Of a stretch of 64,000 bases of DNA, positions 3,977 to 31,966 are shown piece by piece (within the stretch, counting starts at the first letter, position 1; each line of letters opens with the position of its first letter). The notes under the pieces were generated by a model. It was not told the origin of the DNA and ran no database searches. It saw nothing but the letters and a program-made list of their open reading frames with translations. The position numbers were made by a program, and so were the translations under genes. The stretch is from Escherichia phage vB_EcoM_ESCO8: sequence record OM386653.1; one strand, given 5' to 3'.

Positions 3977-3993
3977 TTTAGAAGGAGAACATA

Positions 3994-4944: not shown

Positions 4945-4992
4945 GATCAAGGACAATCTTACGAAAAAGATTTAAAATAAAGATCCACCCTA

Positions 4993-5020: not shown

Positions 5021-5033
5021 CCACGGAGGATTA

Positions 5034-7300: not shown

Positions 7301-7320
7301 ATTAAATAGAGGAGAAAACT

Positions 7321-8730: not shown

Positions 8731-8886
8731 ATGCTTACAGATGATGAATATAAAGCTATCCAAGAAAAACTAACGGAACTTGAAATTCTTGCTGTCAATA
8801 TTAAAGATCAATCACATGCTGGAAAGTTACTACATCAAGAGATCAATAAAATTAAGCAGATGATATTCTTTTGGACGGAGGATTAA
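8731..8886 (+). CDS. hypothetical small protein (51 aa, absent from ORF track)
   Basis: ATG behind AAGGGGAAG; translated by hand MLTDDEYKAIQEKLTELEIL...FFWTED; fills the gap before the HAD gene. Confidence 0.3.
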   Translation: MLTDDEYKAIQEKLTELEILAVNIKDQSHAGKLLHQEINKIKQMIFFWTED

Positions 8887-8888
8887 AA

Positions 8889-10395: not shown

Positions 10396-11104
10396 TAAAG
10401 TAATGACTTTCGGAGATCCTATCACCAATATTACAGAAAAAGATTTTGGGCGTGTAGCAACAGATAAAGATGGTGTCTTAAGAATTCGTGTACAAGGTAT
10501 TACAGCACAGGATGAATATGCTGTGTATGTTTCAGGTCTTAACTATATTGATGATCGCATTACACAAAACTTTGCACTGATCGGTGGTGTAGAGAAAATG
10601 TATTGGGAAGATGAAATTGTAACAAGTTATCCGGCAGGTATCATTGAGGTATACGGTGATCTTTTAGCAGCAGCCGAGAGAGGCGATATAGACGCTATAG
10701 CACACTGCTGTAACTGTTTTTGCACTATGGGTAGTGGTATTGCACCAAAAATTAAAAGCAAGTGGCCTGGTGCGTTTAAAGCAGATTGTGCCACTAAACA
10801 TGGTGATTATAAAAAATTAGGTACGTTTACCAAATATATAGAAAACAATTTGACAATTTATAATTTATATGGACAATATGGTTATAGTCGTCGTGAGGAA
10901 GGTAAGCGTGACCTGAATTATGAAGCTATCTACAATGCGTTAGATAGTATGGGAGACGATGTTGTATCTTCAGGCGGTAAAATTGTAGGTTTACCAATGC
11001 TTGGTTGTGGTTTGGCTGGAGGTTCTTGGAGTATTGTAAAACTTATGATCGAAGAAACTCTAGTAAACAAAGGTTTAAATGTAATTGTTTACAAACTGAA
11101 ATAA
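10388..11104 (+). CDS. macro-domain-like protein (ADP-ribose-derivative binding/processing), tentative
   Basis: DAIAHCCNCFCTMGSGIAPKI resembles the macro-domain block DAIVNAAN...GGGV.GAI; C-terminal GKIVGLPMLGCGLAGGSW resembles the second macro block; start at ATG 10388 behind AAAGGGG. Confidence 0.4.
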   Translation: MSNKVMTFGDPITNITEKDFGRVATDKDGVLRIRVQGITAQDEYAVYVSGLNYIDDRITQNFALIGGVEKMYWEDEIVTSYPAGIIEVYGDLLAAAERGDIDAIAHCCNCFCTMGSGIAPKIKSKWPGAFKADCATKHGDYKKLGTFTKYIENNLTIYNLYGQYGYSRREEGKRDLNYEAIYNALDSMGDDVVSSGGKIVGLPMLGCGLAGGSWSIVKLMIEETLVNKGLNVIVYKLK

Positions 11105-11113
11105 GGAGAAAGT

Positions 11114-11320
11114 ATGGCAGGTGTTTTAGCAGTATTAGGTTGTTTTATTGTTGTGTTTTTGATTGTGTTAATCCCTAGTTGGCTACTGCTTTTAGCATAC
11201 AACTATATGATTGACATTATCGGCTTAGACTGGCATCATGTTCCTGTAACGTTTTGGAGTGTAGTCTGTGTGACGTTCATTCTTGCGGTACTTCGTGGTA
11301 TCTTTCAATCTAACAAATAA
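11114..11320 (+). CDS. small membrane protein (two predicted TM helices)
   Basis: 68 aa, strongly hydrophobic; AAGGAGA RBS. Confidence 0.45.
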   Translation: MAGVLAVLGCFIVVFLIVLIPSWLLLLAYNYMIDIIGLDWHHVPVTFWSVVCVTFILAVLRGIFQSNK

Positions 11321-11334
11321 GAGAGGATTTTTAT

Positions 11335-11583
11335 ATGCGTAAAGTAAATGTTGAAGTGCTTGAAAAATTTAGAAACACTCGTGATTGTACTATCGGCAAG
11401 GTTTACGAGGCTATTCTCCTTGAAGATGGAGATCAAGTTCCTGCCCCGTATCACGCCTTTAATGGTCAAATCAGCAAAGTGGAAGGTGGTCTTGCTATTT
11501 GCTTTATTGATGACGTAGGTGATGCTGTAGCTTTCCCTGTCATTAACAAAGAAGATAAACTTAAAATTACAGAACTGAACTAG
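11335..11583 (+). CDS. hypothetical protein
   Basis: 82-aa ORF behind AGAGAGGA; no motif recognised. Confidence 0.5.
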   Translation: MRKVNVEVLEKFRNTRDCTIGKVYEAILLEDGDQVPAPYHAFNGQISKVEGGLAICFIDDVGDAVAFPVINKEDKLKITELN

Positions 11584-11611
11584 TTGACTTTCTTTAAAAA
11601 CAGTTTATAGT
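11584..11611 (+). promoter_or_regulatory. sigma70-like promoter (TTGACT-16-TATAGT) upstream of the TerC-family gene
   Basis: -35 at 11584-11589, -10 at 11606-11611, read directly from sequence. Confidence 0.45.
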
Positions 11612-11623
11612 ATAAGACATAGA

Positions 11624-11642
11624 GCGGAGGATTGTCCTCCGC
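11624..11642 (+). other. 5'-proximal stem-loop (gcggagga / tcctccgc) in the TerC leader
   Basis: Perfect 8-bp inverted repeat with 3-nt loop just downstream of the predicted start site; no T-tract after it. Confidence 0.4.
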
Positions 11643-11660
11643 ATTAAAGAGGAGAAAAGA

Positions 11661-12638
11661 ATGCAACTGGGTTTCCCAATTATTGATGTGGTTGTTTTAG
11701 TGGGTATTTTAGTCTTGTCGATTTGTATTGACTTCTTTGGACACAGAGAAAACAAAGAAATTTCATTTAAATCTGCAATTGGCTGGTCAATTTTCTGGAT
11801 TGGGGTATCATTAGCCTACTATGGTTTTGTATACTTCCAACACGGTGCTGATTTTGCGAGCTTGTTCTTGAGTGGGTATGTGTTGGAGAAATCTCTTTCT
11901 GTAGATAACTTAGTAGTATTTGTAGCAGTATTCGCAAGTTTTGGTATTAAAAGCACACACTTGCAGCACAAGATTCTACTTTGGGGTATTGCAGGTGCGA
12001 TTGTCTTCCGAGGTGTGTTTGTAGCAGTAGGTACTTACTTGTTGAGTTTGGGCTGGTATGTTAATATCTTCTTCGGTGCTGTCATCCTTTTCTGTGCGGC
12101 TAAAATGGTATTCGCTGGAGATAATGATGCAGAAGTTGATTACTCTAAACACTGGGCTACTCGCATTGTTCGTAAGCTGTTCCCTGTATCTGATCAGATG
12201 GATGGTGAGAAGTTCTTCACAATCAAAAATGGTGTTCGTGTAGCAACTCCGGCTCTGGTTTGTGTGTTTGTAATGGAAATGGTTGACGTAATCTTTGCAG
12301 TAGACTCTGTTCCAGCAGTAATTGCAGTGACACAAGAACCTCTGCTGGTGTTCTCTTCGATGCTCTGTGCAATCTTAGGTTTACGTGCTCTGTTCTTTGT
12401 TCTTAGTGTTGCACTGAAGTATTTGGTTCATCTGGAGAAAGCAGTTATCGTAGTCCTGGTGTTTGTGGGTGTAAAACTGATGTATCACCCGTTTGCAGAA
12501 ACTCTGCACGCAAAAGTGAGTTTCCTGCCAGCACACATTGACCCGACGATCAGTATGTATATTGTGTTAGGTACTCTTGGGCTGGGTGTTCTTGCAAGTT
12601 TAATCTTCCCTGAAAAAGAAGACCAGGCTGTTGCTTAA
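11661..12638 (+). CDS. TerC-family integral membrane protein
   Basis: Polytopic membrane protein, 325 aa, with the TerC-family signature region GYVLEKSLSVDNLVVF; strong RBS AGAGGAGAAAAG. Confidence 0.75.
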   Translation: MQLGFPIIDVVVLVGILVLSICIDFFGHRENKEISFKSAIGWSIFWIGVSLAYYGFVYFQHGADFASLFLSGYVLEKSLSVDNLVVFVAVFASFGIKSTHLQHKILLWGIAGAIVFRGVFVAVGTYLLSLGWYVNIFFGAVILFCAAKMVFAGDNDAEVDYSKHWATRIVRKLFPVSDQMDGEKFFTIKNGVRVATPALVCVFVMEMVDVIFAVDSVPAVIAVTQEPLLVFSSMLCAILGLRALFFVLSVALKYLVHLEKAVIVVLVFVGVKLMYHPFAETLHAKVSFLPAHIDPTISMYIVLGTLGLGVLASLIFPEKEDQAVA

Positions 12639-12645
12639 TTCATTA

Positions 12646-12666
12646 AGCCCCTTCGGGGGCTTTATT
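12646..12666 (+). terminator. intrinsic terminator (agcccc-TTCG-ggggct) plus T-tract
   Basis: GC stem with TTCG loop followed by ttatt, directly after the TerC stop. Confidence 0.65.
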
Positions 12667-12677
12667 GAGGTGATCTG

Positions 12678-12884
12678 ATGGTGGTTTTACGTGTTCTTTG
12701 GATTCTGTTTGAAAATATTTGTTTTGCTCTAGGTTTGTTTTGTTTGATTTTTATCTTGACAACATATATTGATAACCATACAATTACTATCAACAGGAAC
12801 GGAGAACAGATGTATTGTTTCTCTAGGGATTTTAAAAATTGTGTTGAGATTTTAAATGAGAGGGTTACAAATGAAAAACATTAA
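12678..12884 (+). CDS. hypothetical small membrane protein (uncertain)
   Basis: 68-aa hydrophobic ORF behind GAGGTGA; overlaps the lipoprotein start. Confidence 0.25.
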   Translation: MVVLRVLWILFENICFALGLFCLIFILTTYIDNHTITINRNGEQMYCFSRDFKNCVEILNERVTNEKH

Positions 12885-13461
12885 ATCTTTTATTGTTGCA
12901 GTTGTTTTAGGTAGTGCATTGCTGGTAGGTTGTGATGATTCTGAAAATGTACAAAATCAACGTTACCAACAAACACCAAATCAGATGGTAGATGAACAAT
13001 ATGTAAATCAGCCTGCACCTCAAGTTGTTCAAGCAGCACCTGCACAACCTTCAACAGTTGTTGTGCAAGGAGGCGGCAGTGGTTCTTCTGGCGTAGGTGA
13101 GTTTGCTACAGGTATGCTTCTTGGTCATATGTTGAGTGGTAATAGTGGCGGTGGTGGTTATAGAGATGGCGGTAGCAATACAACAATTATCAATAACAAC
13201 GCTGCTCCTACAACTAATAGTAAAGCATATACAACACAAAAGCATAGGTTTTATGATAAACAAGGGAATACATATACAACCACTAAACAAAACACAATTA
13301 AGCAGCAAAGTGTACAAACGTATTCACGCCCATCAACAACAAAAGTGAATAGTGATTACTCTGCTCGTAAGTCTTACTCAAGTCCTATTAGCTCTTATAG
13401 TAAGTCTTCGAAAAGTTATTCTTCGTCGAAACGTAGTTTTAGTAGCTCACGTCGTCGTTAA
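12871..13461 (+). CDS. lipoprotein with glycine-zipper-like segment and Ser-rich C-terminus
   Basis: Signal peptide MKNIKSFIVAVVLGSALLVGC with lipobox LVGC; Gly-rich stretch GGGSGSSGVGEFATGMLLGHMLSGNSGGGG; start at ATG 12871. Confidence 0.6.
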   Translation: MKNIKSFIVAVVLGSALLVGCDDSENVQNQRYQQTPNQMVDEQYVNQPAPQVVQAAPAQPSTVVVQGGGSGSSGVGEFATGMLLGHMLSGNSGGGGYRDGGSNTTIINNNAAPTTNSKAYTTQKHRFYDKQGNTYTTTKQNTIKQQSVQTYSRPSTTKVNSDYSARKSYSSPISSYSKSSKSYSSSKRSFSSSRRR

Positions 13462-13496
13462 TAATTTAATACAGATTAAATAAGAAGGAGAAACAG

Positions 13497-14348
13497 ATGA
13501 AACTAGAAGTTGGTAAAGTGTATCGCCTGGAAGGTTGGATCTTTAATCAAGAAATTCTTGAGAAGAATAAAGATGGTTTTGAGTTTGTTGGTACTACCAA
13601 GGAAAGTATGCACAATGACGAATACTGTAAATTCGTTGGTAAAAATACAGGTCAAGAACAATTTTGCTTTAAGAGCGCAATCGGTGATTATGCTTCTGTA
13701 ATGCCAACACCAGAAAAGACTTCGAAGCAATATACTGTCTTTGGTGTAAAACTTGAAGAACTTGTAGAACACCCACGTTTTGAAGAGTTCAAGGTTGCTG
13801 CAATGCGCAAGCATTCTGAAATTAAAATACATAATTTGTTTGATTTAGAAGATCGGTTTGATATCTTTATGTATGATCGCAGGGAAAAGCATTTTGATGC
13901 AACGACTTCAAAATTTGCTGCAACAGAGGATATTAAAATCCTTGATGTTGATACCTTTCTTGAGAGTGTATCGTTTGTATTCATTCCTAAATACAAAAAA
14001 CGTAGTGATCATAAACGTGTGAAAGGAACTCCTCGTAAAAAACGTACTGTAAACAAAGCAACTTTGCACTTCACTTCTGGTGATAAATATACTCTCAAAG
14101 GGTTTGAAAGTGTTTTGTATGATGCTGGAACGGGTAATATCAAGTTTATCATTAAGGCAACCTACAAAGGTACGGTATTGCACGAAGAGGCTGTTACACT
14201 ACCTGTATTCGATATCTCTCGTGTTGAGGTACGGGGTGTTAAAGAGTCCTTCGATCTGGATTTCTTAACTGCTAATACCACGGGTTATGTTAATCTGGAA
14301 GCAGATGGAGCATTTATTACTACAAATTATTTAGATATGTTTGTTTAA
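13497..14348 (+). CDS. hypothetical protein
   Basis: 283-aa ORF behind AAGAAGGAGA; no motif recognised. Confidence 0.5.
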   Translation: MKLEVGKVYRLEGWIFNQEILEKNKDGFEFVGTTKESMHNDEYCKFVGKNTGQEQFCFKSAIGDYASVMPTPEKTSKQYTVFGVKLEELVEHPRFEEFKVAAMRKHSEIKIHNLFDLEDRFDIFMYDRREKHFDATTSKFAATEDIKILDVDTFLESVSFVFIPKYKKRSDHKRVKGTPRKKRTVNKATLHFTSGDKYTLKGFESVLYDAGTGNIKFIIKATYKGTVLHEEAVTLPVFDISRVEVRGVKESFDLDFLTANTTGYVNLEADGAFITTNYLDMFV

Positions 14349-14365
14349 TACTTAACTTGTGTTAT

Positions 14366-14391
14366 GATGGTGGTATAGAAGTATCACCATC
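14366..14391 (+). other. stem-loop (gatggtg ... caccatc) between ORF 13497-14348 and the TelA-like gene
   Basis: 7-bp inverted repeat with 12-nt loop; no T-tract. Confidence 0.3.
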
Positions 14392-14416
14392 TACTAAAGA
14401 ATATGGAGGAAATTGA

Positions 14417-15520
14417 ATGTCCAGTCCTTTTATCAGTGCCGTAAAAAGCAAACCGTCTGAAATGAGTGTATTCACGGCAACAACAGAAAAAAGTAAGTCT
14501 TTGTTTGCTCCAACTGCTATGGATGCAAGTCCTGTATATGCCCCTGCTGTTGCACGACCTGTACAAATGCTGCCTCCAATGTCTCGTGAAGAGATTGAAC
14601 AGGTTGGTGCTGATGCAGGACTTACTCTTCGTAACCTTAATGCTGAAGTGCTTAAACACCAGCGTTCATCTCAGGGAGATGAAATGAGTGAACGTTTAAC
14701 TGCGCTTATTAAGCAAGCAAAGCAACTTGATCCTAACTCTATTAAACAATCTAAAGGTTTAGGTAAACTAGTTAAGAAAGTTTTAGGTATGAAAGAAGAT
14801 TTGTTTGGAGAATTTGACACCATCAATAACCGTATTGAAGGTTTGGTAAAGACACTCCAAACAGACTTGAAAAAAGAAGAAGATTCTTTACGATATCTGC
14901 AACGTTTAGAAGAGGCTATTGCAAAATATGCCCTTAGTTTAAACAGGGATATAGAGCTTCTAACAGCTACTTATGAAAAAGAAGAAATTCGCCTTAATAC
15001 ACTGCCTGAAAATGAGGTAGAAGAGCGTCAACGTACTCGTGATACTATGGATCTGCTTGAAATTCGTATTGCAGACCTGAAAGCCTTACGCTTACTATGT
15101 GTTCAGATGGGGCCACGTGTACAAAGTATGCAGAAAGTATCTGCAAGTTTGATGCGATCAGCCCGTAATATTGTGAATAATGTTATCCCTGCTTACTCTG
15201 CAAACTTTTCTATGCATATTGAAAGTCTACGCCAGAAGAAAGCAGCCGATACACAGAACAATGTACTAAATGAATTTAATGCTGCTATTGCAATGGGTAG
15301 TGATTTGGCTGCACAAAACCAAATTGAAGCTACACAACTTGCTAATCGTCAAGTATTGGATATTGAAACATTACGTCGTGATCAAGAAAACTTGGTTAAA
15401 ATGTTGGAAGAAACTAACCGAATCAACACTGAAGCCCGTGCTGCTCGTATTGATTACATTCAAGAAGTGCAATCTCTTGAAGATGGTATGATTCAAACTG
15501 TTAAACGTGGTCTACTTTAA
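14417..15520 (+). CDS. TelA-like (toxic anion resistance family) protein, tentative
   Basis: 367 aa, largely alpha-helical/coiled-coil, size and neighbourhood with TerC, TerD and vWA genes fit TelA; no diagnostic motif confirmed by eye. Confidence 0.4.
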   Translation: MSSPFISAVKSKPSEMSVFTATTEKSKSLFAPTAMDASPVYAPAVARPVQMLPPMSREEIEQVGADAGLTLRNLNAEVLKHQRSSQGDEMSERLTALIKQAKQLDPNSIKQSKGLGKLVKKVLGMKEDLFGEFDTINNRIEGLVKTLQTDLKKEEDSLRYLQRLEEAIAKYALSLNRDIELLTATYEKEEIRLNTLPENEVEERQRTRDTMDLLEIRIADLKALRLLCVQMGPRVQSMQKVSASLMRSARNIVNNVIPAYSANFSMHIESLRQKKAADTQNNVLNEFNAAIAMGSDLAAQNQIEATQLANRQVLDIETLRRDQENLVKMLEETNRINTEARAARIDYIQEVQSLEDGMIQTVKRGLL

Positions 15521-15533
15521 GGAGAAATATATT

Positions 15534-15740
15534 ATGAATATTAAAATTTACAAACTGTCTGGTTCTATGATTGCTGTTCAGTATGATAATGAAGATCGTT
15601 ATGTTCTCCTCCAGGATGCTTGGTTAGATGATCCTAATGTATTCACTGTCCTGCGAGAACTACGTTCTGTCTATACCTATTCTTCTAAAGATGGTTTTGA
15701 CAATTCAACGATGGAATTGGTAAAAGAGGAGAATGTGTAA
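15534..15740 (+). CDS. hypothetical small protein
   Basis: ATG 15534 behind AAGGAGA. Confidence 0.4.
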   Translation: MNIKIYKLSGSMIAVQYDNEDRYVLLQDAWLDDPNVFTVLRELRSVYTYSSKDGFDNSTMELVKEENV

Positions 15741-15940
15741 TGAGTAAAGATATTCACTTAACTCGTGAAGAATTGCAAACCATTATGGAAGATGCTTTCA
15801 TTGATGGTTGGAAACAAGGTCAAGAATCAGATTGGTATGATGCCGAAGATTTTTTGTATTATCATATGACTGCACCTGTAGACGAGCAAACACACTCTGA
15901 AACAACTTTGGCTTTAATTGATCTTAAGGCTGGTGTATAA
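15740..15940 (+). CDS. hypothetical small acidic protein
   Basis: 66 aa; carries motif LTREELQTIMEDAFIDGWKQG shared with the next ORF. Confidence 0.4.
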   Translation: MSKDIHLTREELQTIMEDAFIDGWKQGQESDWYDAEDFLYYHMTAPVDEQTHSETTLALIDLKAGV

Positions 15941-16503
15941 TGGGGTGTTTTAGTTTCTTGTGCAAAGAGTCTGGTAATGCTGCTCTTTCTACCTCTTTTG
16001 ATGGCTCTCCTTGCTACCTATTTCTTTTGAAAGGTGGTAAGGTTGTCGAAGAGATGTATGGGAATTATGATAGCTATGGTAGTGTTTTCTCTAACGAAGA
16101 AGATAAACATGGCAATCGTAAAAGATTTAAGTGGTCTATGCCTTGGGAAGAAGTTTGTAATTTGATGTTCTCTTCCGATCTTGGAGATGGGATTGCTCTG
16201 GTATTAGAAGAGCACTTTACAGGTGAGATCCCAACAGAAAGATCTGAAGAAGATCCTAACCAGGGTTGGGGTGATGGAGAAGAAGATCCAGATTGCTTCT
16301 TCAACACTGAAAATAATAAATTTAAACGTGTTGACAATCCTTACCACAAAGTGCATAATACTTGCATTGAGACAGAAGAAGACTCAAAGCTAGAAATTGA
16401 AGATGATTTAGTTGTAACTATCTCTTTAAACGAGTTGCAAAAAATCACTAGAGAGGCTTTCTATTTAGGTTGGAAAGTAGGTAAAGGAGGAGATAGTGCT
16501 TAA
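15940..16503 (+). CDS. hypothetical acidic protein
   Basis: 187 aa; C-terminal LNELQKITREAFYLGWKVG echoes the motif of the upstream ORF. Confidence 0.45.
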   Translation: MGCFSFLCKESGNAALSTSFDGSPCYLFLLKGGKVVEEMYGNYDSYGSVFSNEEDKHGNRKRFKWSMPWEEVCNLMFSSDLGDGIALVLEEHFTGEIPTERSEEDPNQGWGDGEEDPDCFFNTENNKFKRVDNPYHKVHNTCIETEEDSKLEIEDDLVVTISLNELQKITREAFYLGWKVGKGGDSA

Positions 16504-16765
16504 ATTTAATATCAAAGACGACAAATCAGATGAACCTAAATGTTTTGGAGAACTTGACGTAGGTGATACATTTGTATATTATGTTGCCTATCAAGATTCT
16601 GGTTTAGATACGTTCAGAAACTTAGTGTTTATTAAAGTTAATACAAACCAAGCAATGTGTCTGAACGGTTCGCAAAGAGGTCAACTTAGCTGTATTTCGT
16701 ATGATACAGAAATGGTAGAAGTGGATTTAGAAGTTACTAACATTACACTCAGAAAGGAGAAATAA
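16496..16765 (+). CDS. hypothetical protein
   Basis: GTG start behind AAAGGAGGA; 89 aa. Confidence 0.4.
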   Translation: MLKFNIKDDKSDEPKCFGELDVGDTFVYYVAYQDSGLDTFRNLVFIKVNTNQAMCLNGSQRGQLSCISYDTEMVEVDLEVTNITLRKEK

Positions 16766-16766
16766 T

Positions 16767-17561
16767 ATGTCCAATAAAATCAGTCTTAAAAAACGTCAAG
16801 AAACTCTTACCGTATCTCTGCGTAAGAAAAAGATTAACGATGTTGTTCTTCGTGTCGGTAGCGCCTTAGATATTTCGGGTAGTATGTGTGAGCTGTATCG
16901 TGATGGCACTGTTAGTGATTTTGTAGGTAAGCTACTGCCGTTTGGTATGAAGTTTGATGATAATGCACAGATTGACATGTGGGCTTTCAATAGTTCTTCT
17001 TTTGAACTGCCTCCTGCAACGGCTGATGTATATGATGATTATGTCGGCTCTTGTATGTCTAATGTTTGCATCAATGGTGGTACAGCTTATGCTCCAGTAA
17101 TGCAAGAGATCTATGATACATACTTCGGTAGTGTACCTATGAAAAATATTACACGCGAAGTCGTTGAGTATGAAGAAGTTCCGGCTAAGGGTTTCCTTGC
17201 TAAACTAACTGGTAAAAAAGAACGTGTAGAAGTTACACGTACTGTTGTAGAACAGGTTGTAGATACTGATGCACAAGTTGATCGTACTCCTGCAATGATT
17301 TTCTTCCAAACTGACGGGGAGAACATGGATACTTCAGCAGTACGTAGTTTGCTGAACAAACACCGCAACACTCCTGTTTACTGGTTTATGGTTGGTGTAG
17401 GTAATGCAAACTTTAAATTCCTGAAAGACTTGGCAAAAGAATACGATAACGTTGATTTTATCGGTATTGCAGATTTGTCCTTGTCTGACGAAGAACTTTA
17501 CGATAAACTGCTATCCGAAGAGTTTGGCGAGTGGGTTAAAAAATTTGGAGCAAAAGCGTAA
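16767..17561 (+). CDS. von Willebrand factor A (vWA) domain protein, TerY-like
   Basis: MIDAS-type motif ALDISGSM (DxSxS) near the N-terminus; 264 aa. Confidence 0.6.
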   Translation: MSNKISLKKRQETLTVSLRKKKINDVVLRVGSALDISGSMCELYRDGTVSDFVGKLLPFGMKFDDNAQIDMWAFNSSSFELPPATADVYDDYVGSCMSNVCINGGTAYAPVMQEIYDTYFGSVPMKNITREVVEYEEVPAKGFLAKLTGKKERVEVTRTVVEQVVDTDAQVDRTPAMIFFQTDGENMDTSAVRSLLNKHRNTPVYWFMVGVGNANFKFLKDLAKEYDNVDFIGIADLSLSDEELYDKLLSEEFGEWVKKFGAKA

Positions 17562-17568
17562 AAAACGC

Positions 17569-17596
17569 TTGACTTTGTAGAAAAGATTAGTAAAAT
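17569..17596 (+). promoter_or_regulatory. sigma70-like promoter (TTGACT-16-TAAAAT) driving the TerD gene
   Basis: -35 at 17569-17574, -10 at 17591-17596. Confidence 0.5.
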
Positions 17597-17633
17597 AGAC
17601 AACGTAAATTAACAACAAAGGAGATAATAAATT

Positions 17634-18230
17634 ATGACTCAGAAAATTTCCCTGAAAAAAGGTTCTAGCGAAAAAGTTTCTCTGAAAAAGATTGCACCAG
17701 CACTGAAACGCATTCGTCTGGAATTCTCTTGGAAATCTAACGAAAAACTGGATCTGGATGTTAGTGCTCTGATTTGCCGACACAATGCATCTGGTCTGCC
17801 GGAACTGTTGTCTCCTCGCCACCTGGTATGCTACGCACAGAAATTTGATCCTGAACGTTCTACTTTTGCAGGTGAAGATGTTCGTGACGGTGTAGGACAA
17901 ATGGAGCAGATTGATGTTACACTGGATAATATCTCTGCTGAAGCACAGGAAATTGCATTCGTAATCACTATTGATGACGAAACGGGTAAGAAACGCCTTG
18001 GTCACGCTACCGAAGGTTTCCTTAAAATCTTCGATGATGAACGTAACGTTGAACTGCTGGATTTTGACTTCTTGGCTCCAGAACTTGCAGGTAATACCAT
18101 TTGCCACGTTGCCTCCCTGGTGCGGGAAGATAGCGAATGGAAACTGAAAGCATATGGTGTAGGTAAAGCTGGACTTGACATTTATGATGTAGTTAAAGCG
18201 TTTGGCGCTGGCGACGATTGGTTCGAGTAA
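17634..18230 (+). CDS. TerD-domain protein
   Basis: N-terminal ISLKKGSSEKVSLKK, LDLDVSALI, GEDVRDGVG and C-terminal WKLKAYGVGKAGL blocks characteristic of TerD; strong RBS AAGGAGA; codon choice strongly biased to CTG/CGT/GGT/GAA/AAA. Confidence 0.8.
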   Translation: MTQKISLKKGSSEKVSLKKIAPALKRIRLEFSWKSNEKLDLDVSALICRHNASGLPELLSPRHLVCYAQKFDPERSTFAGEDVRDGVGQMEQIDVTLDNISAEAQEIAFVITIDDETGKKRLGHATEGFLKIFDDERNVELLDFDFLAPELAGNTICHVASLVREDSEWKLKAYGVGKAGLDIYDVVKAFGAGDDWFE

Positions 18231-20178: not shown

Positions 20179-20235
20179 GTAAAACCATTTAGACTTTTTA
20201 GTCTAAAAATGCTAAAGTAATAATACGGAGGGAGT

Positions 20236-20799
20236 ATGATATTTCACATAACTCCCTATCTTTCTGGAGATATTGGAAAAGGTATCAATGACACAATAAG
20301 TGTCTTACCAGAAGATAGTTGGATTTGCCTAAGAGACATTGATACAATGTTTCTTCTTCCAGAACAACCTGCTTGGCTGGAATCAATAGTCCGTTCAAAT
20401 CCTGATTTTGATGTTCTTGGTGCATCTTGTAATAGATTGGGATCAACATATCAATTATTTAATAATGAAAGAAGTGAAGATCCGAATATACTACACCACA
20501 TTGAGATTGCAAAAAGAGCACATCTAGAATGGGGAAACTCAATAGAGGAAGTACCTACAGATGCTATCTTAGCAGGATTCTTTCTTCTCTTTCGTAAGAG
20601 TCTGTGGAATGAAATCCCTTTTGAGGAAAGATCAATACAGTTTGATATAATTTTCTCTAAAGCATTGCACGCTAACAATAAAAGGCTAGGTTTACTACGT
20701 GGGTTATATTTATTTCACACATACCGTTTAGGTAATGATGATCCTAGAAAAGCTATTTCACACCTTTTACATTGTCAAGACATGAATAAAATTATTTAA
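20236..20799 (+). CDS. hypothetical protein, possibly nucleotide-sugar transferase-like
   Basis: DxD-like LRDIDTMF; AT-rich codon usage; assignment weak. Confidence 0.3.
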   Translation: MIFHITPYLSGDIGKGINDTISVLPEDSWICLRDIDTMFLLPEQPAWLESIVRSNPDFDVLGASCNRLGSTYQLFNNERSEDPNILHHIEIAKRAHLEWGNSIEEVPTDAILAGFFLLFRKSLWNEIPFEERSIQFDIIFSKALHANNKRLGLLRGLYLFHTYRLGNDDPRKAISHLLHCQDMNKII

Positions 20800-20808
20800 G
20801 GAGTTATT

Positions 20809-21495
20809 TTGGAAAATACAAAAATTGGTGTTGGTGTTATTACTGTAGGTAAGCGTCCTCTTAAAGATTATCTTGTGACTGATCCTAATGCTACTTTTGT
20901 TGTACAGTATGATCGGGAGCGAAAAGGTGTTGCATATGCTCGTAATGAACTGATGAAAAAGTTTTATGATGAAGGGTATGATTACTGGTTTATTTTTGAT
21001 GATGATTGCTATCCTGTTGTTCAAGGTTGGGAAACATATTTTGTAAAACAGGCGAAGGAAAATGGTTGGGATTTCTTTGGTATGCCTGAATACTTTAAAG
21101 ATAAAGTAAAAGGTATTGAAGGGGAAGTGGTTATTTGGGAACTAGGTATGTGCCAGTTTGGTATGTATTCCCGTGCAGTTATTGAGAAAGCTGGCTATTT
21201 CCGCTCATACACCCACGGTTATGGATATGAAGATGCAGAGTGGATTCATCGCGTTCCACTGGCAGGTTTGAACCGAGGTATTCAAGGCGTGCCATGTCCT
21301 ATTCGAATTATGGCGTTTATCCATCCTGATGATGTATTTGGAGACAATCCTTTACCTTTTGCGAATCTGTCAAAAGAAGAGAAAGAACAGGGGATTGGTG
21401 TAAACTGGGAACAATATAAACAATCCTTGGAGGATCTTCGCAATGGTAAAACTTTTATCTCTTATGAGGAGGCTCAAAAATATGGTAAATCCTAA
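20809..21495 (+). CDS. glycosyltransferase, family 2-like (GT-A fold)
   Basis: Pattern GVAYARNELMKKFYDEGYDYWFIFDDDCYP matches the GT2 block (ARN...G.dY..f.DdD); TTG start behind AAGGAG. Confidence 0.5.
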   Translation: MENTKIGVGVITVGKRPLKDYLVTDPNATFVVQYDRERKGVAYARNELMKKFYDEGYDYWFIFDDDCYPVVQGWETYFVKQAKENGWDFFGMPEYFKDKVKGIEGEVVIWELGMCQFGMYSRAVIEKAGYFRSYTHGYGYEDAEWIHRVPLAGLNRGIQGVPCPIRIMAFIHPDDVFGDNPLPFANLSKEEKEQGIGVNWEQYKQSLEDLRNGKTFISYEEAQKYGKS

Positions 21496-22456
21496 TACTC
21501 CTGTACTTAAGTGTGATAATAAGTTAGGCAGTGGTTGTGATTACCATCGTATTGTAATGCCATTTGCTGGAAATACGTTTAAACCTAAGAAAGACGTTTT
21601 AGTTTTTAATAGAGTGTATTCTCGTGGAGCAGACGAGGTTAAACGCCTGAAGGCACAAGGTGTTAAGATTATTGTTGATTTAGATGACTTTTATTCACTT
21701 AATCCTGAACATTATATGGCTGGCGTATTTACTAATCATTCAAAGACTATTGTAGAGATGGTTAAGTTAGCAGATGTTGTTACTGTAACAACAGAATACC
21801 TAGCTTACAAAATTCGTCATTTAAATCGTAATGTTGTCGTAATTAGAAACGCACTACCTTACGACGAAGGTCAATTTACTTTGACAAAAGACCGTAATTC
21901 TGACACGCCTATTATCTGGGCTGGAGGAGCAAGCCACGAGCCTGATTTATCTCTTGTAGCTAATACATTTGATGATACACTATTGACAATTGCAGGGTAT
22001 GAAGTGTATCCTTCTGCACCTGTTGGAAATAACAGTCAGTATCTAACTACTGCGGAGTGGGTTAAAATAAAACGTAAAATTCCAAATGCACAGTATAAAC
22101 CAGCTATTAAAAATTTAGGTGAGTATATGTCTGTGTATGACGGTCACAGCATTGCAATTGCTCCCCTGGTAGATAATGACTTCAACAACTGTAAAAGCAA
22201 TTTGAAGATTTTGGAAGCAGGTGCAAAGGGTCTTCCTATTATCTGTTCTCCTGTGCTGCCGTACTTCAATCCGGTAGATGCAAAGGCTGTTATCTATGCA
22301 GACTCTAAAGCATCTTGGCATTATGAAGTTGTCAAGCTAATGAGGAACCCTAGATACACAGAAGATCGTGGTATGATGCTTGCAGAACACGTTCGTCTTA
22401 ATTATAATCTTGCAGATGCCAATGAACTGCGTCGTCAAGTTATTGAAAGTCTTTAA
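21482..22456 (+). CDS. glycosyltransferase (GT-B fold), paralogue 1
   Basis: C-terminal block NNCKSNLKILEAGAKGLPIICSP (GT1-type E..G.P motif); start at ATG 21482 behind GAGGAGG; clear paralogy with the next gene. Confidence 0.5.
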   Translation: MVNPNTPVLKCDNKLGSGCDYHRIVMPFAGNTFKPKKDVLVFNRVYSRGADEVKRLKAQGVKIIVDLDDFYSLNPEHYMAGVFTNHSKTIVEMVKLADVVTVTTEYLAYKIRHLNRNVVVIRNALPYDEGQFTLTKDRNSDTPIIWAGGASHEPDLSLVANTFDDTLLTIAGYEVYPSAPVGNNSQYLTTAEWVKIKRKIPNAQYKPAIKNLGEYMSVYDGHSIAIAPLVDNDFNNCKSNLKILEAGAKGLPIICSPVLPYFNPVDAKAVIYADSKASWHYEVVKLMRNPRYTEDRGMMLAEHVRLNYNLADANELRRQVIESL

Positions 22457-22467
22457 CAAGGAGTTAT

Positions 22468-23412
22468 ATGCCTAATATTATTCTTGACACACGCGGAAAT
22501 GAAAAGTATAGTGTATGTGATTTTCATAGAATCATTTTGCCATATAAACGCAAACTGACCATTAATCCTAAGCATAATATTTTTGTGTTCAATGGTGTAC
22601 CAACACGTGGAAAGCCAGGTTTCCTGGCTCTTAAACAACTTGGGTTTAAATTGGTAATGGATCTGGATGATTCTTTAATTATTCCTGAAGGACATATGCT
22701 TGAAGGACTATTTGAAAATCAAATCCGAGATGACCTAAAATGGTTTCTTGAAAGAAGCGATCTTGTAACTACAACAACTCCGGCATTAAAGGTTGAATTA
22801 AGCCAATACAATGATAATGTACATATTGTGCCTAACGGACTACCTTTTGATGAAGGACAGTTTGTTCTTACTAAAGATCGTTATTCTAAAAGTCCACTGG
22901 TTTGGGCGGGAAGTGAAACCCATAAACATGATTTAGCAATTCTTCCTGATTTTGGTAAAGATTTAACTTTATGTGGATTTCGTAGAGATCACGAAGAGTT
23001 AAGTAGTGCTCAATGGTTGCAAATTAAAGAAGATATTCAACCAGATTGTGTTTATGAAGGTATTCGTCCTTATGAGTGTTATATGGAAGCATACGATGGT
23101 CATCAAATCTCCATAGCTCCATTAGTAAATAATCATTTTAATAATGCCAAAAGTAATTTAAAAATTCTTGAAGCTGGTGCTAAAGGTTTGCCACTCGTTT
23201 GTTCGCCACGAGAGAACTATTATACTGAAGAATTTAAAGATCTAATCTTCTTTGCTGATTCAGTTAAAGAGTGGAAAGATATTGTAGAATACTTAATCGA
23301 ATCTCCTGATGTTTGTATTGAGAAAGGATTGGCTCTTGCTAAGTATGTAAGAGATAACTACAATATTGATGATTTAAATGAAACCCGCAGACTGCTTATC
23401 GAGGATTTATAA
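22468..23412 (+). CDS. glycosyltransferase (GT-B fold), paralogue 2
   Basis: Shares CD(Y/F)HRI, LTKDR, WAG, NN(C/A)KSNLKILEAGAKGLP and LNE(L/T)RR blocks with paralogue 1. Confidence 0.5.
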   Translation: MPNIILDTRGNEKYSVCDFHRIILPYKRKLTINPKHNIFVFNGVPTRGKPGFLALKQLGFKLVMDLDDSLIIPEGHMLEGLFENQIRDDLKWFLERSDLVTTTTPALKVELSQYNDNVHIVPNGLPFDEGQFVLTKDRYSKSPLVWAGSETHKHDLAILPDFGKDLTLCGFRRDHEELSSAQWLQIKEDIQPDCVYEGIRPYECYMEAYDGHQISIAPLVNNHFNNAKSNLKILEAGAKGLPLVCSPRENYYTEEFKDLIFFADSVKEWKDIVEYLIESPDVCIEKGLALAKYVRDNYNIDDLNETRRLLIEDL

Positions 23413-23693: not shown

Positions 23694-25466
23694 GTGTCTT
23701 ATGTTGTAAATAAATATGGGTATAACATTGATCTAAGTCAAGAAGGACATACTGGGTGTCCTCGTTGTATGAAAGGAGGGCGTGATCGATCACAAAACAA
23801 TTTGATGGTATATGGCTTAGATGCCGATGAAGACCATCGAGGCGCACATTGTTTTTCTTGTGGCTTTACTATCCCTGATCAAAAATGGTTAAATGCACAC
23901 GGCGAAGAAATTGAAGAGGAGGATATCTTGGGTAGTGAGTTTAATCCAGAAGTACATGATAAACTAAAAGCCAGCACTGGAACTAATCCAAAAGGTTATC
24001 GCGGTATTCGTGAAGATATCTCTAAGCCTTTCGGTGTACGTTATATGTACGATGAAGCTACTGGCGAAGTAATTTCAACACTATACCCTACAACTAAAGA
24101 TTACAATATTGCTGGGTATAAACAACGTATCGATCCAAAAGATTTCTCGCATCCTATCGGTGAAACAGGAAAGGATTGTGATCTTTTTGGGGAGTTTAAA
24201 TATCGTAACCACAGCGGTACTATTCTAATCGTTGGTGGTGAACACGATATGCTGGCTGCAACACAGATGCTAAAAGATTATAACAAGGGTGGTAAATATC
24301 CTGTTCCTGCTGTAGTATCTGGTACTTGTGGCGAAACATCTCTGCATAAGCAGCTTCAACATCGTTATAAATTCTTAGATCAATTTAAAAAGATTGTTCT
24401 ATGTATGGATAATGATGAAGCTGGACGTGCAGCAGTTGAGAAATGTGTTAAAATCTTACCACGTAATAAAGTTTACGTGATGGAACTAACGGATGTTAAA
24501 GATCCTAACCAGGCACTAGTAGAAGGAAAAATTGATCATTTTATTGATCGCTTTTTCAAAGCTAAATTGTACACACCTGCTGGTGTTTACGCTTCTAACG
24601 TACTGTATGAAGCAGCCTTGGAATGCCTGGAAGCTAAAATGATCACCCTTCCTCCATTCATGCGTGTTGCTTCTAATATGTTAGGTGGAGGCTTGGTAGA
24701 AGAAGAAATTACTGTTATACTTGCAAAAACAAGTATCGGTAAGACACTGTTGGTTAACGAGATTACAAAGCACATTATTCTTGCACATCCAGAACATACT
24801 CTTGGTATTTTATCTTTGGAGGCAACGTATAAGAAGTATTCTCGTAACTTACTGTCTTCATTCTTGCATATCCCTCTTCACCGTAAAACGAAAGAAGAGA
24901 AGGAAAAGATTTTAAAAGATAATGAAGAAAAGATTCGTGATTTTTACGAACGAGAAGATGGAACACCACGTTTCTATGTTTGTGATGATCGTGGAGCTAA
25001 CGTAGATGTGATTAAAGAGAAGGTTCTGGAAATGATTATTTATTTCGGAGTAACCATTCTTGTTATCGACCCTTATTCTGATTTGCTTTCTGGTATGGAC
25101 GTGTCACAACAAGAGGAACTTGCGACGTGGCTGAAACGCATTATGAAAGAGTATGCAATAACCATTGTTGTAATTTCACACGTTAAAAAGTCTTCTAACA
25201 ATAGTAATGAACATATTGTAGAAGATGATGCAATGGGTAGTAGCTTCCTTGCTAAAGGTGCTGGTATCACAATTGCGCTGGAGCGTGATAAACAAGCTGA
25301 AGATCCTATGGAACGTAACCGCACATATTGCTACATTCTAAAGAACCGTGAGTTCTCAGAGACTGGTGCAGCAGGTAGTTTCTTCTATGAGATTAAAACA
25401 GCTACACTTCACGATTACGATCAATACACAAGTAACCCAGAGAACATCTCTGCTGGTTCTTATTAA
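23694..25466 (+). CDS. bifunctional DNA primase/helicase (T7 gp4-like)
   Basis: N-terminal zinc finger CPRCMKGG...HCFSCG, TOPRIM-like acidic blocks ILIVGGEHD / LCMDNDEAG, DnaB-type Walker A LAKTSIGKT and Walker B LVIDPYSDL; GTG start behind AGGAGA. Confidence 0.85.
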   Translation: MSYVVNKYGYNIDLSQEGHTGCPRCMKGGRDRSQNNLMVYGLDADEDHRGAHCFSCGFTIPDQKWLNAHGEEIEEEDILGSEFNPEVHDKLKASTGTNPKGYRGIREDISKPFGVRYMYDEATGEVISTLYPTTKDYNIAGYKQRIDPKDFSHPIGETGKDCDLFGEFKYRNHSGTILIVGGEHDMLAATQMLKDYNKGGKYPVPAVVSGTCGETSLHKQLQHRYKFLDQFKKIVLCMDNDEAGRAAVEKCVKILPRNKVYVMELTDVKDPNQALVEGKIDHFIDRFFKAKLYTPAGVYASNVLYEAALECLEAKMITLPPFMRVASNMLGGGLVEEEITVILAKTSIGKTLLVNEITKHIILAHPEHTLGILSLEATYKKYSRNLLSSFLHIPLHRKTKEEKEKILKDNEEKIRDFYEREDGTPRFYVCDDRGANVDVIKEKVLEMIIYFGVTILVIDPYSDLLSGMDVSQQEELATWLKRIMKEYAITIVVISHVKKSSNNSNEHIVEDDAMGSSFLAKGAGITIALERDKQAEDPMERNRTYCYILKNREFSETGAAGSFFYEIKTATLHDYDQYTSNPENISAGSY

Positions 25467-25962: not shown

Positions 25963-28542
25963 ATGGGAGCTTTTACTTTCGACATTGAAAGTAACAACTT
26001 GCTTAATGACGAAAGTGTAGATTACTTGGCAAGTCCATATCGTTTAAAAGATAGTTTTGCAATGCACTGTATTGTGTGCGAAAGTCATGATACTGGAGAG
26101 ATTATTGCTTTCCATGATGGTGATAAATATCTTTTCGATGGTCGTCCGTATGTTGAGACTGACGGAAAGTATGAATACCGACTGGAGGAATATGAGCATT
26201 TAGAATATACCCATTTCCCTCTTAAAGATTTTCCTGATTTTGTAAATGGAACAGGTAAATTTAAAGGTAATTCAAACTATAAAATTACCAAAGTAGTTGG
26301 ACATAACATCATTAACTTTGACTTACTGGCAATTAAATTATTTTTTAAACTCAACTACAGTATTAAGTACAATACTTGGGGTAATAGTAACATTGAAATT
26401 TGTGATACTATGATCTTAAGTAAGACACTAAACCCTGATCGCTTCGGTGGTCATAGTCTGGCAGAGTTATCTAAGAAAGCTGGAGGGGATGTTAAAATTG
26501 ATTTTAGAAAAAACATTCCTGAAACTGAAAGATTTAAAACATTTGCAGCAGATATGCTGTATTACTGTATTTACGATAACAAAGCTAACACCGCAGTGTT
26601 CCGTTATTTGATGGAAGAGTGGGGTGATTATAACAAGTGGTCTGAACCATTTAACTTAGAACAACGTGTAGCTGATATTATTACACGTCAAGAGCACCGT
26701 GGCTTTGCTTTCAATATGAAACAAGCAGAAGATAATATTCGTGATCTGGATGCTCGAATGGAAGCATGTCGTTTAGAGGCAGAACCTGTGCTACCTCCTA
26801 AACCTGCTACTAAAGGTTATTTGAAATCATTCATTCCACCTAAACTACAGTTTAAAAAGAATGGTGAACCTTCAAGTAACATGATAAAGTTTGCAGAGAA
26901 ACATTCTGGTGAACTTGTACAAAAAGAAGATGGTTGGTGGCTATTTGCATTAGGTAAAGAGTTTAAACTACCTATTCCAGCAGAAGAACCTATTTGTGAT
27001 CCTACAGTACCTGCTACTTTAGACGACACTACACATATTAAAAACTGGTTAGTTGGTTTAGGTTGGAGTCCATCTGAATATAAAGATAAAGATATCACTC
27101 TTAAATCTGGCACTAAGATTAAGAAAGATGAAGCACAAATGGAGAAAGCTATTCGTGACTATGTTGATCAAACATTAGCATCTAACTTCTGCCAGGACAG
27201 ATGTGATCATCTGGAGTGCACACCAGAAACTTTGGAATGGAAACTAAGAGATCGTATTGCTAAAGCTAAAGGTCGTGGTGTTAAAGTGCTTACGAACCCT
27301 TCCTTTACAAAAGGGCAAGAGAAAGATATTTGTCCTAACTTGGAAGCACTAGGTGAAAAGTTTCCTTATGCTACGCAGATTGTGCAGTATCTTACGTATA
27401 AACACCGTAGGAACTCTATTCTAGGGGGTGGTGCTGATTGGGAAGAAGATGAAGAGGATTACGATAAAGGTTATCTGGCAGCAGTAAGGGCTGATGGTCG
27501 TATACCAACTCCTGCTGCAACGTGTGATGCAGCTACGTCTCGTATGAAACATAGGCTAGTAGCAAATATCCCACGTGTAACATCTCTGTACGGATATGAA
27601 ATGCGTAACTTATTTGGTGTAGAAGTTCCAAAATACTTCCAAATTGGTTATGACTTTGATTCTCTTGAGGCAAAAATAGAATCACACTACTGTTGGCGGT
27701 ACGAGCAGGAACCACACGAATATTGTAATGCTCTGTTATTGGAAAAACCTAATGACGTTCATACAATGATGGCTCGACGTATTTCTGACACTATTGGTCG
27801 TAAGTTTGAACGAAGCCCTGCTAAATCTGTTAAGTATGGTATTACTTATGGTGCTCAAGCTGCAAAAGTAGCAAAAACTATAGGTAGTGATATGTATACA
27901 GGACAGCTTGTATACGATGCTTTCTGGGAAGCTGCAAAACCTCTTGCGCTTCTTAAAGAACGTCTGCATGACTTTTGGGTTAAAACAGGTAAGAAATACA
28001 TTCTGGGTATTGATGGTAGGAAAGTACCTACACGATCTGCACACGCAATACTTAACTCTCTGTTCCAGAGTGGTGGTGTTATTTGTGCAAAAAGAGCAAT
28101 GGTTATCTACGACGATCTTATCGAAGAAGAAGGATTAGCTGTTGACTTTTTTGTTGATGACTGGAAAAATAAGTCATTCGTTCAACAAATGATTGCATAT
28201 CACGATGAAGCACAGCTTGAAGTAACTCGTGATCTGGTGCATTTTAAATGGTTCTCTAAAGAATCTTTAGGTTGGACTCAAGTTGATGATCCAGAAGAAC
28301 AAAAGAAAATTGATAAAGAATGTTTGGATAAAGTTAATGCCTGGAAAGAAGAGGAAGAGAAACGTACTGGCAAGATTTGGGCTAACGTACATGAATCTCC
28401 GAAAGGTGGTTGGTTTACAGCCTACAGTCGTGCTGGAGAATTAGCATCTATCGCTGTTAATAAAGCTGGTGAGTATTACAATCTTAATGTACCTCTCACT
28501 GCTGGTTACGATGTTGGTAACTCATGGGCGTCTTGTCACTGA
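25963..28542 (+). CDS. DNA polymerase, family A (T7-like) with 3'-5' exonuclease domain
   Basis: Exo I FDIESNN; Pol A motif A YDFDSLEAKI, motif B RSPAKSVKYGITYG, motif C HDE (AYHDEAQ). Confidence 0.9.
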   Translation: MGAFTFDIESNNLLNDESVDYLASPYRLKDSFAMHCIVCESHDTGEIIAFHDGDKYLFDGRPYVETDGKYEYRLEEYEHLEYTHFPLKDFPDFVNGTGKFKGNSNYKITKVVGHNIINFDLLAIKLFFKLNYSIKYNTWGNSNIEICDTMILSKTLNPDRFGGHSLAELSKKAGGDVKIDFRKNIPETERFKTFAADMLYYCIYDNKANTAVFRYLMEEWGDYNKWSEPFNLEQRVADIITRQEHRGFAFNMKQAEDNIRDLDARMEACRLEAEPVLPPKPATKGYLKSFIPPKLQFKKNGEPSSNMIKFAEKHSGELVQKEDGWWLFALGKEFKLPIPAEEPICDPTVPATLDDTTHIKNWLVGLGWSPSEYKDKDITLKSGTKIKKDEAQMEKAIRDYVDQTLASNFCQDRCDHLECTPETLEWKLRDRIAKAKGRGVKVLTNPSFTKGQEKDICPNLEALGEKFPYATQIVQYLTYKHRRNSILGGGADWEEDEEDYDKGYLAAVRADGRIPTPAATCDAATSRMKHRLVANIPRVTSLYGYEMRNLFGVEVPKYFQIGYDFDSLEAKIESHYCWRYEQEPHEYCNALLLEKPNDVHTMMARRISDTIGRKFERSPAKSVKYGITYGAQAAKVAKTIGSDMYTGQLVYDAFWEAAKPLALLKERLHDFWVKTGKKYILGIDGRKVPTRSAHAILNSLFQSGGVICAKRAMVIYDDLIEEEGLAVDFFVDDWKNKSFVQQMIAYHDEAQLEVTRDLVHFKWFSKESLGWTQVDDPEEQKKIDKECLDKVNAWKEEEEKRTGKIWANVHESPKGGWFTAYSRAGELASIAVNKAGEYYNLNVPLTAGYDVGNSWASCH

Positions 28543-31234: not shown

Positions 31235-31966
31235 ATGAGCGAATTTGTAAACAACACCGCGTTAAACTACCTGCAAACCCTCGAAAGCAATAGTGTAGAT
31301 TTGATTCTTACTGACCCACCATATGCTATTTCTCGTGACACAAATTTTCAATCTGGAGAGCCTACTGGAAAAGATACAGATAGATTCCGTGTATCTTACA
31401 ACTTTGGGGATTGGGATGTTGTAGATATTCCTTACTTTAAAGAAGTATTCAAAGAAGCCTATAGGGTGCTTAGAAAAGGTGGTACTTGCATAGTTTGGTA
31501 TGATATCTGGAAGATCCAGGAGCTACGTGAAATCCTTGAACCGCTTGGTTTTCGTATGTTCCGTACTATTGAATGGATTAAAACAAACCCTGTACCCATC
31601 AACAGTGGTGTTAACTACCTTAGTAACGCTAAAGAGATGGCTATTGTTTGTGTTAAAGGTTCTAAGCCAACCTTCAATGCCTCCTACCACAAGGGTGTGT
31701 TTGAGTATCCTATCTATCAAGGAGCAGATCGTTTTCATCCGACACAAAAACACTTGACTTTGTTTTGTGACCTTATTAATATACATACCAACGAAGGAGA
31801 TGTAGTCTTAGACTTCTTCTCTGGAAGTGCAACAACACAAGTTGCGGCACTTTTAACAGGTAGAGAATACTTAGGCTGTGAAGCCGATGTAAATATTTTT
31901 AAGCAAGCGGAGGAACGACTAAATGAGTACACTGAACAGCAAAATCACCCTGAAAGCACTGATTAA
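31235..31966 (+). CDS. DNA methyltransferase, beta-class (N6-adenine or N4-cytosine)
   Basis: Motif IV ILTDPPYA near the N-terminus and AdoMet motif I VVLDFFSGSATT near the C-terminus (IV-before-I order). Confidence 0.75.
   Translation: MSEFVNNTALNYLQTLESNSVDLILTDPPYAISRDTNFQSGEPTGKDTDRFRVSYNFGDWDVVDIPYFKEVFKEAYRVLRKGGTCIVWYDIWKIQELREILEPLGFRMFRTIEWIKTNPVPINSGVNYLSNAKEMAIVCVKGSKPTFNASYHKGVFEYPIYQGADRFHPTQKHLTLFCDLINIHTNEGDVVLDFFSGSATTQVAALLTGREYLGCEADVNIFKQAEERLNEYTEQQNHPESTD

Follow-up and report, generated by a model that had tools for sequence, protein, structure and literature searches.

A four-gene glycosyltransferase cassette in phi92-like coliphages, possibly for a rhamnose-containing glycan on virion proteins

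Escherichia phage vB_EcoM_ESCO8 (sequence record OM386653.1) carries a compact cassette of four glycosyltransferase (GT) genes, called A to D here, at positions 20236-23412 of the 64,000-nucleotide stretch that was analysed (the window). All four products are glycosyltransferases, two with a GT-A fold and two with a GT-B fold. The explanation tentatively put forward is that they serve the stepwise assembly of a short, rhamnose-containing hetero-oligosaccharide on structural proteins of the virion. That the genes encode glycosyltransferases is already in the public records, and the gene content is no discovery: the phi92 genome record annotates gp163-166 as predicted GT folds, RefSeq labels all four proteins “glycosyltransferase”, and BASEL labels C and D “putative disaccharide synthase”. 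New in this analysis are the structural confirmation of A as a GT-A enzyme, the division of the locus into an A+C core with B and D as add-ons, and the link of the four-gene form to the rml genes. The cassette genes are as follows.

Gene A, 20236-20799, + strand: 187 amino acids (aa), minimal GT-A-fold glycosyltransferase, orthologue of phi92 gp166, first gene of the cassette.
Gene B, 20809-21495, + strand: 228 aa, TTG start, GT-A (GT2-like) glycosyltransferase, orthologue of phi92 gp165.
Gene C, 21482-22456, + strand: 324 aa, GT4-like GT-B glycosyltransferase, orthologue of phi92 gp164.
Gene D, 22468-23412, + strand: 314 aa, GT4-like GT-B glycosyltransferase, orthologue of phi92 gp163.

An earlier note on this DNA had described the region as a four-gene glycosyltransferase cluster, and the open reading frames (ORFs) stand exactly where it placed them. 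The longest ORF of gene C runs from 21443, but the ATG at 21482, which the note had chosen, is preferred because a GAGGAGG Shine-Dalgarno sequence lies 8 nucleotides (nt) 5' of it and because the phi92 record uses the equivalent start. Successive spacings in the cassette are 9, -14, 11 and -1 nt, and the primase/helicase gene follows after a further 12 nt. Such tight packing (-14 to +11 nt) fits one operon, and A to D together with the downstream genes look, from this layout, like a single transcription unit. The whole region is 100% identical to Escherichia phage outra (MN850645.1) and shows 98-99% identity to more than 50 further phi92-like phages (Justusliebigvirus, Stephanstirmvirinae). 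The cassette is intact in 53 of the 56 phage records that match at 95% nucleotide identity or more, and Phapecoctavirus also carries it, at 66-77% amino-acid identity. An AT-rich inverted repeat, TAGACT-TTTT-AGTCTA, at 20192-20207 in the 57-nt gap 5' of the gene A ribosome-binding site, may be a regulatory or promoter-associated element.

The two GT-A enzymes each show the single Rossmann-like domain of that fold. Gene A, which had been described as a weaker transferase-like ORF, has an invariant DxD motif (D34 and D36). Gene B had been read as GT-A/GT2-like on the strength of ARN...FDDDCYP; the motif is present, Pfam and PHROGs return GT-A-type matches (PHROG 2456, E 2e-79), and N46, D64-D65-D66, Y138-G139 and E141-D142 are invariant, with R45 nearly so. 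Among the 19 members of the B family, 17 show a weak match to TAGT (PF20691), 11 to Glyco_transf_7C and 11 to GT2. The A and B families comprise 47 and 18 clusters respectively, and hhalign finds no relationship between the two. Searches of the PDB with A, B and D, by single sequence and by profile, give no meaningful match, and the C/D profile yields only weak matches to GT4 C-terminal domains; NCBIfam likewise has no match to A, B, C or D. The isoelectric points of A, B and D are on the acid side (5.1-5.6), which is weakly suggestive in being atypical for DNA-binding enzymes, and the grand average of hydropathy (GRAVY) is negative for all four.

The two GT-B enzymes had been called clear paralogues, a judgement that holds: BLASTP aligns C and D over their full length (324 columns) at 41% identity with an E value of 8e-82, far beyond chance, and the shared motifs pointed out at the time are all found (CDYHRI/CDFHRI, LTKDR, NN[CA]KSNLKILEAGAKGLP and ANELRR/LNETRR). 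Both show the two Rossmann domains of a GT4-like GT-B fold. C matches PHROG 7162 (E 6e-149); against Pfam PF13524, D scores 26.8 bits for a cut-off of 25 and C only 14.4 bits, while C scores 17.9 bits against PF13692, whose cut-off is 27. Residues K228, S229, K232 and E235, in the C-terminal, nucleotide-sugar-binding EX7E-type region, are invariant across 41 sequences, and in TreT the C-terminal helix region is what aligns with this part. The C/D family is small, at 57 clusters of 90% identity, and the longest contigs examined are mostly phage-like. Which copy is the older? The single GT-B of Klebsiella phage phi1_175008 is 67% identical to C versus 38% to D, that of a Burkholderia contig 44% versus 35%, and the single GT-B genes of metagenomic phages are likewise nearer C than D. 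Because outgroup GT-B proteins are always nearer C, C is taken as ancestral and D as the derived copy. The D/GT-B homologue is split in LR597654.1 (phAPEC8_ev052, 111074-111984) and in MW394390.1 (Klebsiella phage FBKp34): BLAST aligns it in two pieces in phAPEC8_ev052, and in both records the match covers a pair of proteins annotated as hypothetical. The gene may be disrupted, and hence dispensable, in some laboratory-propagated phages.

Within Stephanstirmvirinae the cassette occupies a syntenic slot, flanked by the genes for a cell-wall hydrolase and the primase/helicase, whose content differs from phage to phage. Klebsiella phage phi1_175008 has A and C there (74% and 67% identity), Klebsiella phage 05F01 has A, B and one GT-B, and E. 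coli Justusliebigvirus and Phapecoctavirus have all four genes. Comparison of these related phages shows that A and C are the conserved core and that B and D are add-on modules. To judge from gene content, these two-, three- and four-GT variants form the modular pattern expected of glycan-building cassettes.

The four-gene form also comes with a supply of activated rhamnose. In the related phage EmilieFrey (MZ501063.1) an operon of rmlD, rmlC, rmlA and rmlB, for deoxythymidine diphosphate (dTDP)-L-rhamnose, lies at 116028-119289 (1029-4290 of segment L005), outside the window, where it is annotated as bas61_0211-0214; it adjoins glutaredoxin and class I ribonucleotide reductase genes, and along that record some 70 kb separate it from the GT cassette. 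An RmlA homologue is present in phi92 and in the other E. coli Stephanstirmvirinae records listed, versus at most two of the Klebsiella-labelled records, ten of which carry the GT-B. By this distribution the rhamnose pathway tracks the four-gene cassette. Since D and rmlA occur in the same genomes, the enzyme most simply proposed for adding the rhamnose is D, a candidate rhamnosyltransferase by this co-occurrence. Four records labelled as “Campylobacter phage” with host C. jejuni also contain the cassette and rmlA: A145 (MG065645.1), A110a (MG065689.1), A150 (MG065639.1) and B15 (MG065650.1). The first three match phi92-like coliphages at 98-99% amino-acid identity and B15 matches phapecoctaviruses. 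These host labels are probably a mistake, or contamination of the samples lies behind them.

Outside this group of phages, the neighbourhoods of more distant relatives bear on what the enzymes might modify. Gene A matches the C-terminal domain of gp42 of Cellulophaga phage phi17:1, whose gene has portal/MuF genes on one side and protease/major capsid genes on the other, with a Methyltransf_24 gene adjacent. A-like genes also head multi-GT clusters with sugar methyltransferase, deacetylase, GLF (UDP-galactopyranose mutase), DegT and epimerase genes (L009 and L013), and one A-like multi-GT cluster adjoins portal and capsid genes. A 36-kb phage (L007) has a C-like gene and a B-like GT-A directly 5' of its small terminase, terminase, portal and capsid genes, and another C/D relative stands first in a five-GT cluster with sugar-nucleotide-modifying enzymes. 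For gene B, the only non-enterobacterial phage relatives come from mycobacteriophages, of which tblastn matches 351 records (25-27% identity, E about 1e-7). An example is gene 101 of Hamulus, which has an N-terminal GT-A domain and belongs to a right-end cassette syntenic with genes 108-110 of Che8; glycans have been reported on capsid proteins of the cluster F1 phages Che8 and Rita (PMC11256854).

There is also a bacterial relative: on Burkholderia dolosa contig JAIMDN010000082.1 (L011), at 3025-8440, an adhesin gene is followed by a gene for a 571-aa protein without a Pfam match and then by one for a 411-aa homologue of C (44%). The adhesin is an inverse autotransporter of the invasin/intimin-like type (IAT_beta, Invasin_D3, Big_1), and the gene string is chromosomal and may be an adhesin glycosylation system; a C-like gene behind an adhesin gene suggests a protein acceptor. 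No base-hydroxylating enzyme occurs in any of the homologue neighbourhoods examined. As far as gene order can tell, the contexts of the homologues agree among themselves and point away from DNA and towards protein glycosylation, a pattern that is new in this analysis.

From the observed folds, paralogy, operon layout, locus variants and homologue contexts a model can be drawn whose acceptor, donors and order of action are inferred. The soluble enzymes A to D would build a hetero-oligosaccharide stepwise on an acceptor other than DNA, most likely one or more virion proteins. A and C, as GT-A and GT-B, would place the inner sugars from host nucleotide sugars, and the glycan would be extended or branched by the GT-A enzyme B and by D, which arose as a duplicate of C and has diverged. 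The phage rmlABCD operon would supply dTDP-L-rhamnose, with D, by co-occurrence, the best candidate for its user. By analogy with the glycosylated capsids of mycobacteriophages, such a sugar coat would alter the virion surface, for example in stability, stickiness or recognition by antibodies or host factors. On this view, phi92- and phAPEC8-like coliphages would themselves make a rhamnose-containing oligosaccharide and attach it as a coat to proteins of their virions, the capsid or the Ig-like/collagen-like lateral fibres being candidates, a proposal that is possible but doubtful.

Among known systems, chlorovirus PBCV-1 (A064R) and the mimiviruses encode their own machinery for capsid or fibril glycosylation. 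They resemble the phage cassette in combining several GTs with their own nucleotide-sugar synthesis, including that of rhamnose, and PBCV-1 also in its sugar methyltransferases, here found in the homologue clusters of other phages; these are eukaryotic giant viruses, however, and the likeness is at the level of fold only. There are also the virion-glycosylation cassettes of the Che8 type in actinobacteriophages, which likewise consist of two to four phage GT-A/GT-B genes, with close relatives differing in how many they have and of which type. B is significantly similar (E about 1e-7) to the N-terminal GT-A domain of the enzyme that other F1 phages encode at the syntenic position. The present cassette differs in its Gram-negative host, in its phage-encoded dTDP-rhamnose pathway and in its location, since it belongs to the replication arm and those cassettes to the end of the genome.

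Several points weigh against a glycan on the virion. Che8 gp108-110 have no significant match to B or to the profiles of A and C/D, and with no detectable similarity of the cassette proteins to these no direct homology to the studied Che8 enzymes is claimed. The contexts of homologues as distant as these (25-45% identity) cannot fix the acceptor, nor do GT4 and GT-A folds reveal acceptor specificity. The cassette sits in the replication and nucleotide-metabolism arm, away from the late structural genes. None of the window's capsid, sheath and tube candidates has a convincing Ser/Thr-rich tail of the mycobacteriophage type, and a literature search that did not cover phi92 virion proteomics found no experimental report of glycosylated phi92-like or Stephanstirmvirinae virions.

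One particular acceptor was considered and set aside as speculation. The lateral tail fibre encoded at 34316-36277 (- strand) contains four short collagen-like Gly-X-Y runs, such as GDKGEPGPEGPQGVPG and GEKGDKGDKGDQGEQGIQGLTGPTGAG, and the rhamnosylated BclA of Bacillus anthracis offers an analogy for a fibre in this role; the runs are short, and rich in Lys rather than Thr. A collagen-repeat fibre is also found in Cellulophaga phage phi17:1, the phage with the A-like GT.

Could the sugar go onto DNA instead? The earlier note had favoured sugar modification of DNA bases, which is not a new idea: in 2020 Olsen et al. described the complete dTDP-rhamnose pathway in phi92-like phages and phapecoctaviruses and suggested rhamnosylation of hydroxymethylated nucleotides (PMC7552041). 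In this scheme rhamnose or other sugars would be attached to a modified base, perhaps at a few sequence-specific sites such that general sensitivity to restriction is kept; it is rated improbable, the least likely of the rivals. The known phage routes require a base hydroxyl, which comes either from a ThyA homologue, giving hydroxymethylcytosine (hmC), hydroxymethyluracil (hmU) or 5-hydroxycytosine (5-hydroxyC), or from a C5 methyltransferase together with TET/5mYOX, and the same requirement sets apart the DNA glycosyltransferases of phages (T4 alpha-GT of GT72, T4 beta-GT of GT63, the T2/T6 beta-glucosyl-HMC alpha-GT and TAGT of PF20691), since no maker of the hydroxylated base was found here. 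The note had seen no base hydroxymethylase in the window, which is confirmed, and had proposed looking further: across about 120 kb of the EmilieFrey genome neither annotation nor search shows a ThyA-type dCMP or dUMP hydroxymethylase or a 5-hydroxy-dCMP synthase. In the parts examined, the sole homologue of thymidylate synthase (EmilieFrey, 323 aa, L005 9840-10811, - strand) is a divergent ThyX-type enzyme, matching Thy1 (PF02511) at 36.9 bits only, and not ThyA. A Pfam scan of EmilieFrey hypothetical proteins of at least 190 aa over the same 120 kb or so, which leaves aside shorter proteins and the first 24 kb or so of structural genes, contains no TET/JBP protein; a Dcm-like methyltransferase lies about 60 kb from the cassette in that genome.

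The enzymes themselves give DNA no better support. Comparison with the T4 alpha- and beta-glucosyltransferases and other DNA GTs, which the note had proposed as a check, places D nearer to generic GT4 enzymes, with T4 alpha-GT at rank 17 and T4 beta-GT at rank 32 among its structural matches. B stays below the TAGT threshold, at 24.1 bits for a cut-off of 27.5; this is the best score of the 19 family members, and the match spans only profile positions 37-100 of 205, the generic DxD half. TET-associated DNA GT-A enzymes have the active-site motifs R...DDD...EDY/F (Pyle et al. 2023), which the pattern R45/N46...D64-D65-D66...E141-D142-A of B resembles, except that Ala or some other residue stands in place of Tyr or Phe at the end of the third motif; motifs of this kind are common in GT2 too. 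Phages that glycosylate their DNA resist restriction, whereas phi92-like phages were found “exceptionally susceptible” to six restriction-modification (RM) systems “despite a putative dTDP glycosylation machinery” (Maffei et al. 2021; PMC8594841). In the Durham collection the 13 phages sensitive to BrxU, a type IV enzyme against modified DNA, are all Straboviridae, which by inference puts the phi92-like Durham phage Paula outside the sensitive set, as the paper does not name it. No nucleoside analysis of a Justusliebigvirus was found in the literature. DNA glycosylation is thus without any supporting feature among those tested, and it keeps a low weight because sparse, site-specific modification would escape RM assays.

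Two other rivals propose other acceptors. Of these, modification of the host envelope, which the note had offered as its alternative, is unlikely but has more to recommend it. The GTs would act at the inner face of the membrane on intermediates linked to undecaprenyl phosphate or to lipid A-core, their targets being lipopolysaccharide (LPS) core, O-antigen, enterobacterial common antigen (ECA), colanic acid or the NGR receptor glycan, with effects such as a block to superinfection or less adhesion of progeny to debris. The best structural matches of D include PglA, PglH, PimA/B, HepE, WbnH and WaaG, enzymes whose acceptors are lipid-linked or polysaccharides. In PHROGs the category of all four proteins is “moron, auxiliary metabolic gene and host takeover”, and phi92-like phages recognise several host glycans through their many tailspikes; L-rhamnose, moreover, is a common O-antigen sugar. 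Yet phage-driven modification of surface glycans is typically the work of temperate phages and membrane proteins of the GtrABC type, and this phage is lytic and the negative GRAVY of all four products suggests soluble proteins (no transmembrane prediction was made). The position of homologues in the head-assembly module of small phages would also be left unexplained, and the contexts of the relatives speak more for phage or surface proteins as what is glycosylated.

It is improbable that the acceptor is soluble, whether a small molecule or a protein of the infected host. The cassette might inactivate a defence signal or an antibiotic, for example, or decorate a metabolite of the Ter/PRTase/HAD module, which has the same orientation and begins and ends within 2-11 kb upstream of the cassette (PRTase_3, HAD, Macro, TerC, TelA, vWA-TerF and TerD). 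Such a role would agree with the small soluble acceptors of other top structural matches of D (sucrose-phosphate synthase, BshA, TreT, GlgM, MshA) and with the disaccharide synthase label that BASEL gives to C and D, but four different GTs and a dedicated rhamnose pathway exceed the needs of a simple disaccharide, the relatives sit beside capsid/portal or adhesin genes and not metabolic ones, and no conserved gene for small-molecule biosynthesis travels with the cassette. The likeness to bacterial retaining GT4 enzymes (PglA/PglH, BshA, PimA/B, sucrose-phosphate synthase, TreT) is distant, at an identity of only 9-16%, and those enzymes are 360-400 aa long versus 314-324 aa for C and D.

The note had also remarked on replication genes and a DNA methyltransferase close by, and these are found. 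The + strand of the window from about 0.5 to 32 kb holds replication and nucleotide-metabolism genes, and the - strand from 32 to 64 kb holds tail, fibre and head genes. The neighbours of the cassette are the following.

Primase/helicase, 23694-25466.
DNA polymerase, 25963-28542.
Dam-like methyltransferase, about 31235-31966.

Upstream of the cassette, the complete Ter-type stress module (window 8871-18230, + strand), which is also present in the Klebsiella relative, comprises the genes below and several intervening proteins without an annotated function.

HAD hydrolase, 8871-9545, + strand.
ComF-like PRTase_3, 9538-10395, + strand.
Macro domain, 10271-11104, + strand.
TerC, 11661-12638, + strand.
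TelA, 14417-15520, + strand.
vWA-TerF, 16767-17561, + strand.
TerD, 17634-18230, + strand.

Two genes of the replication arm differ in structure between relatives. The DNA polymerase gene is 3315 nt long in phi92 (NC_023693.1, 96335-99649) versus 2580 nt in the window, and nrdD is annotated as split and spliced in phi92 (118797-120875) versus a single intact ORF of 609 aa in the window (5004-6833). It seems that phi92 carries insertions (an intein, an intron or a homing element) that outra lacks.

Justusliebigvirus and Phapecoctavirus phages infect a very broad range of hosts, and their use in therapy has often been suggested. Were the cassette to modify DNA without a known hydroxylated base, the chemistry would be new, which is unlikely on present evidence. 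If it builds a glycan on the virion, no earlier E. coli phage would have been described with a glycosylated virion, and the finding would explain why a lytic coliphage maintains a complete dTDP-rhamnose pathway, a puzzle raised in 2020. Antibody recognition, clearance, stability and adsorption would be affected, as reported for glycosylated mycobacteriophages, and the two-, three- and four-GT variants of the locus would represent distinct glycan “serotypes” among phages that are candidates for therapy.

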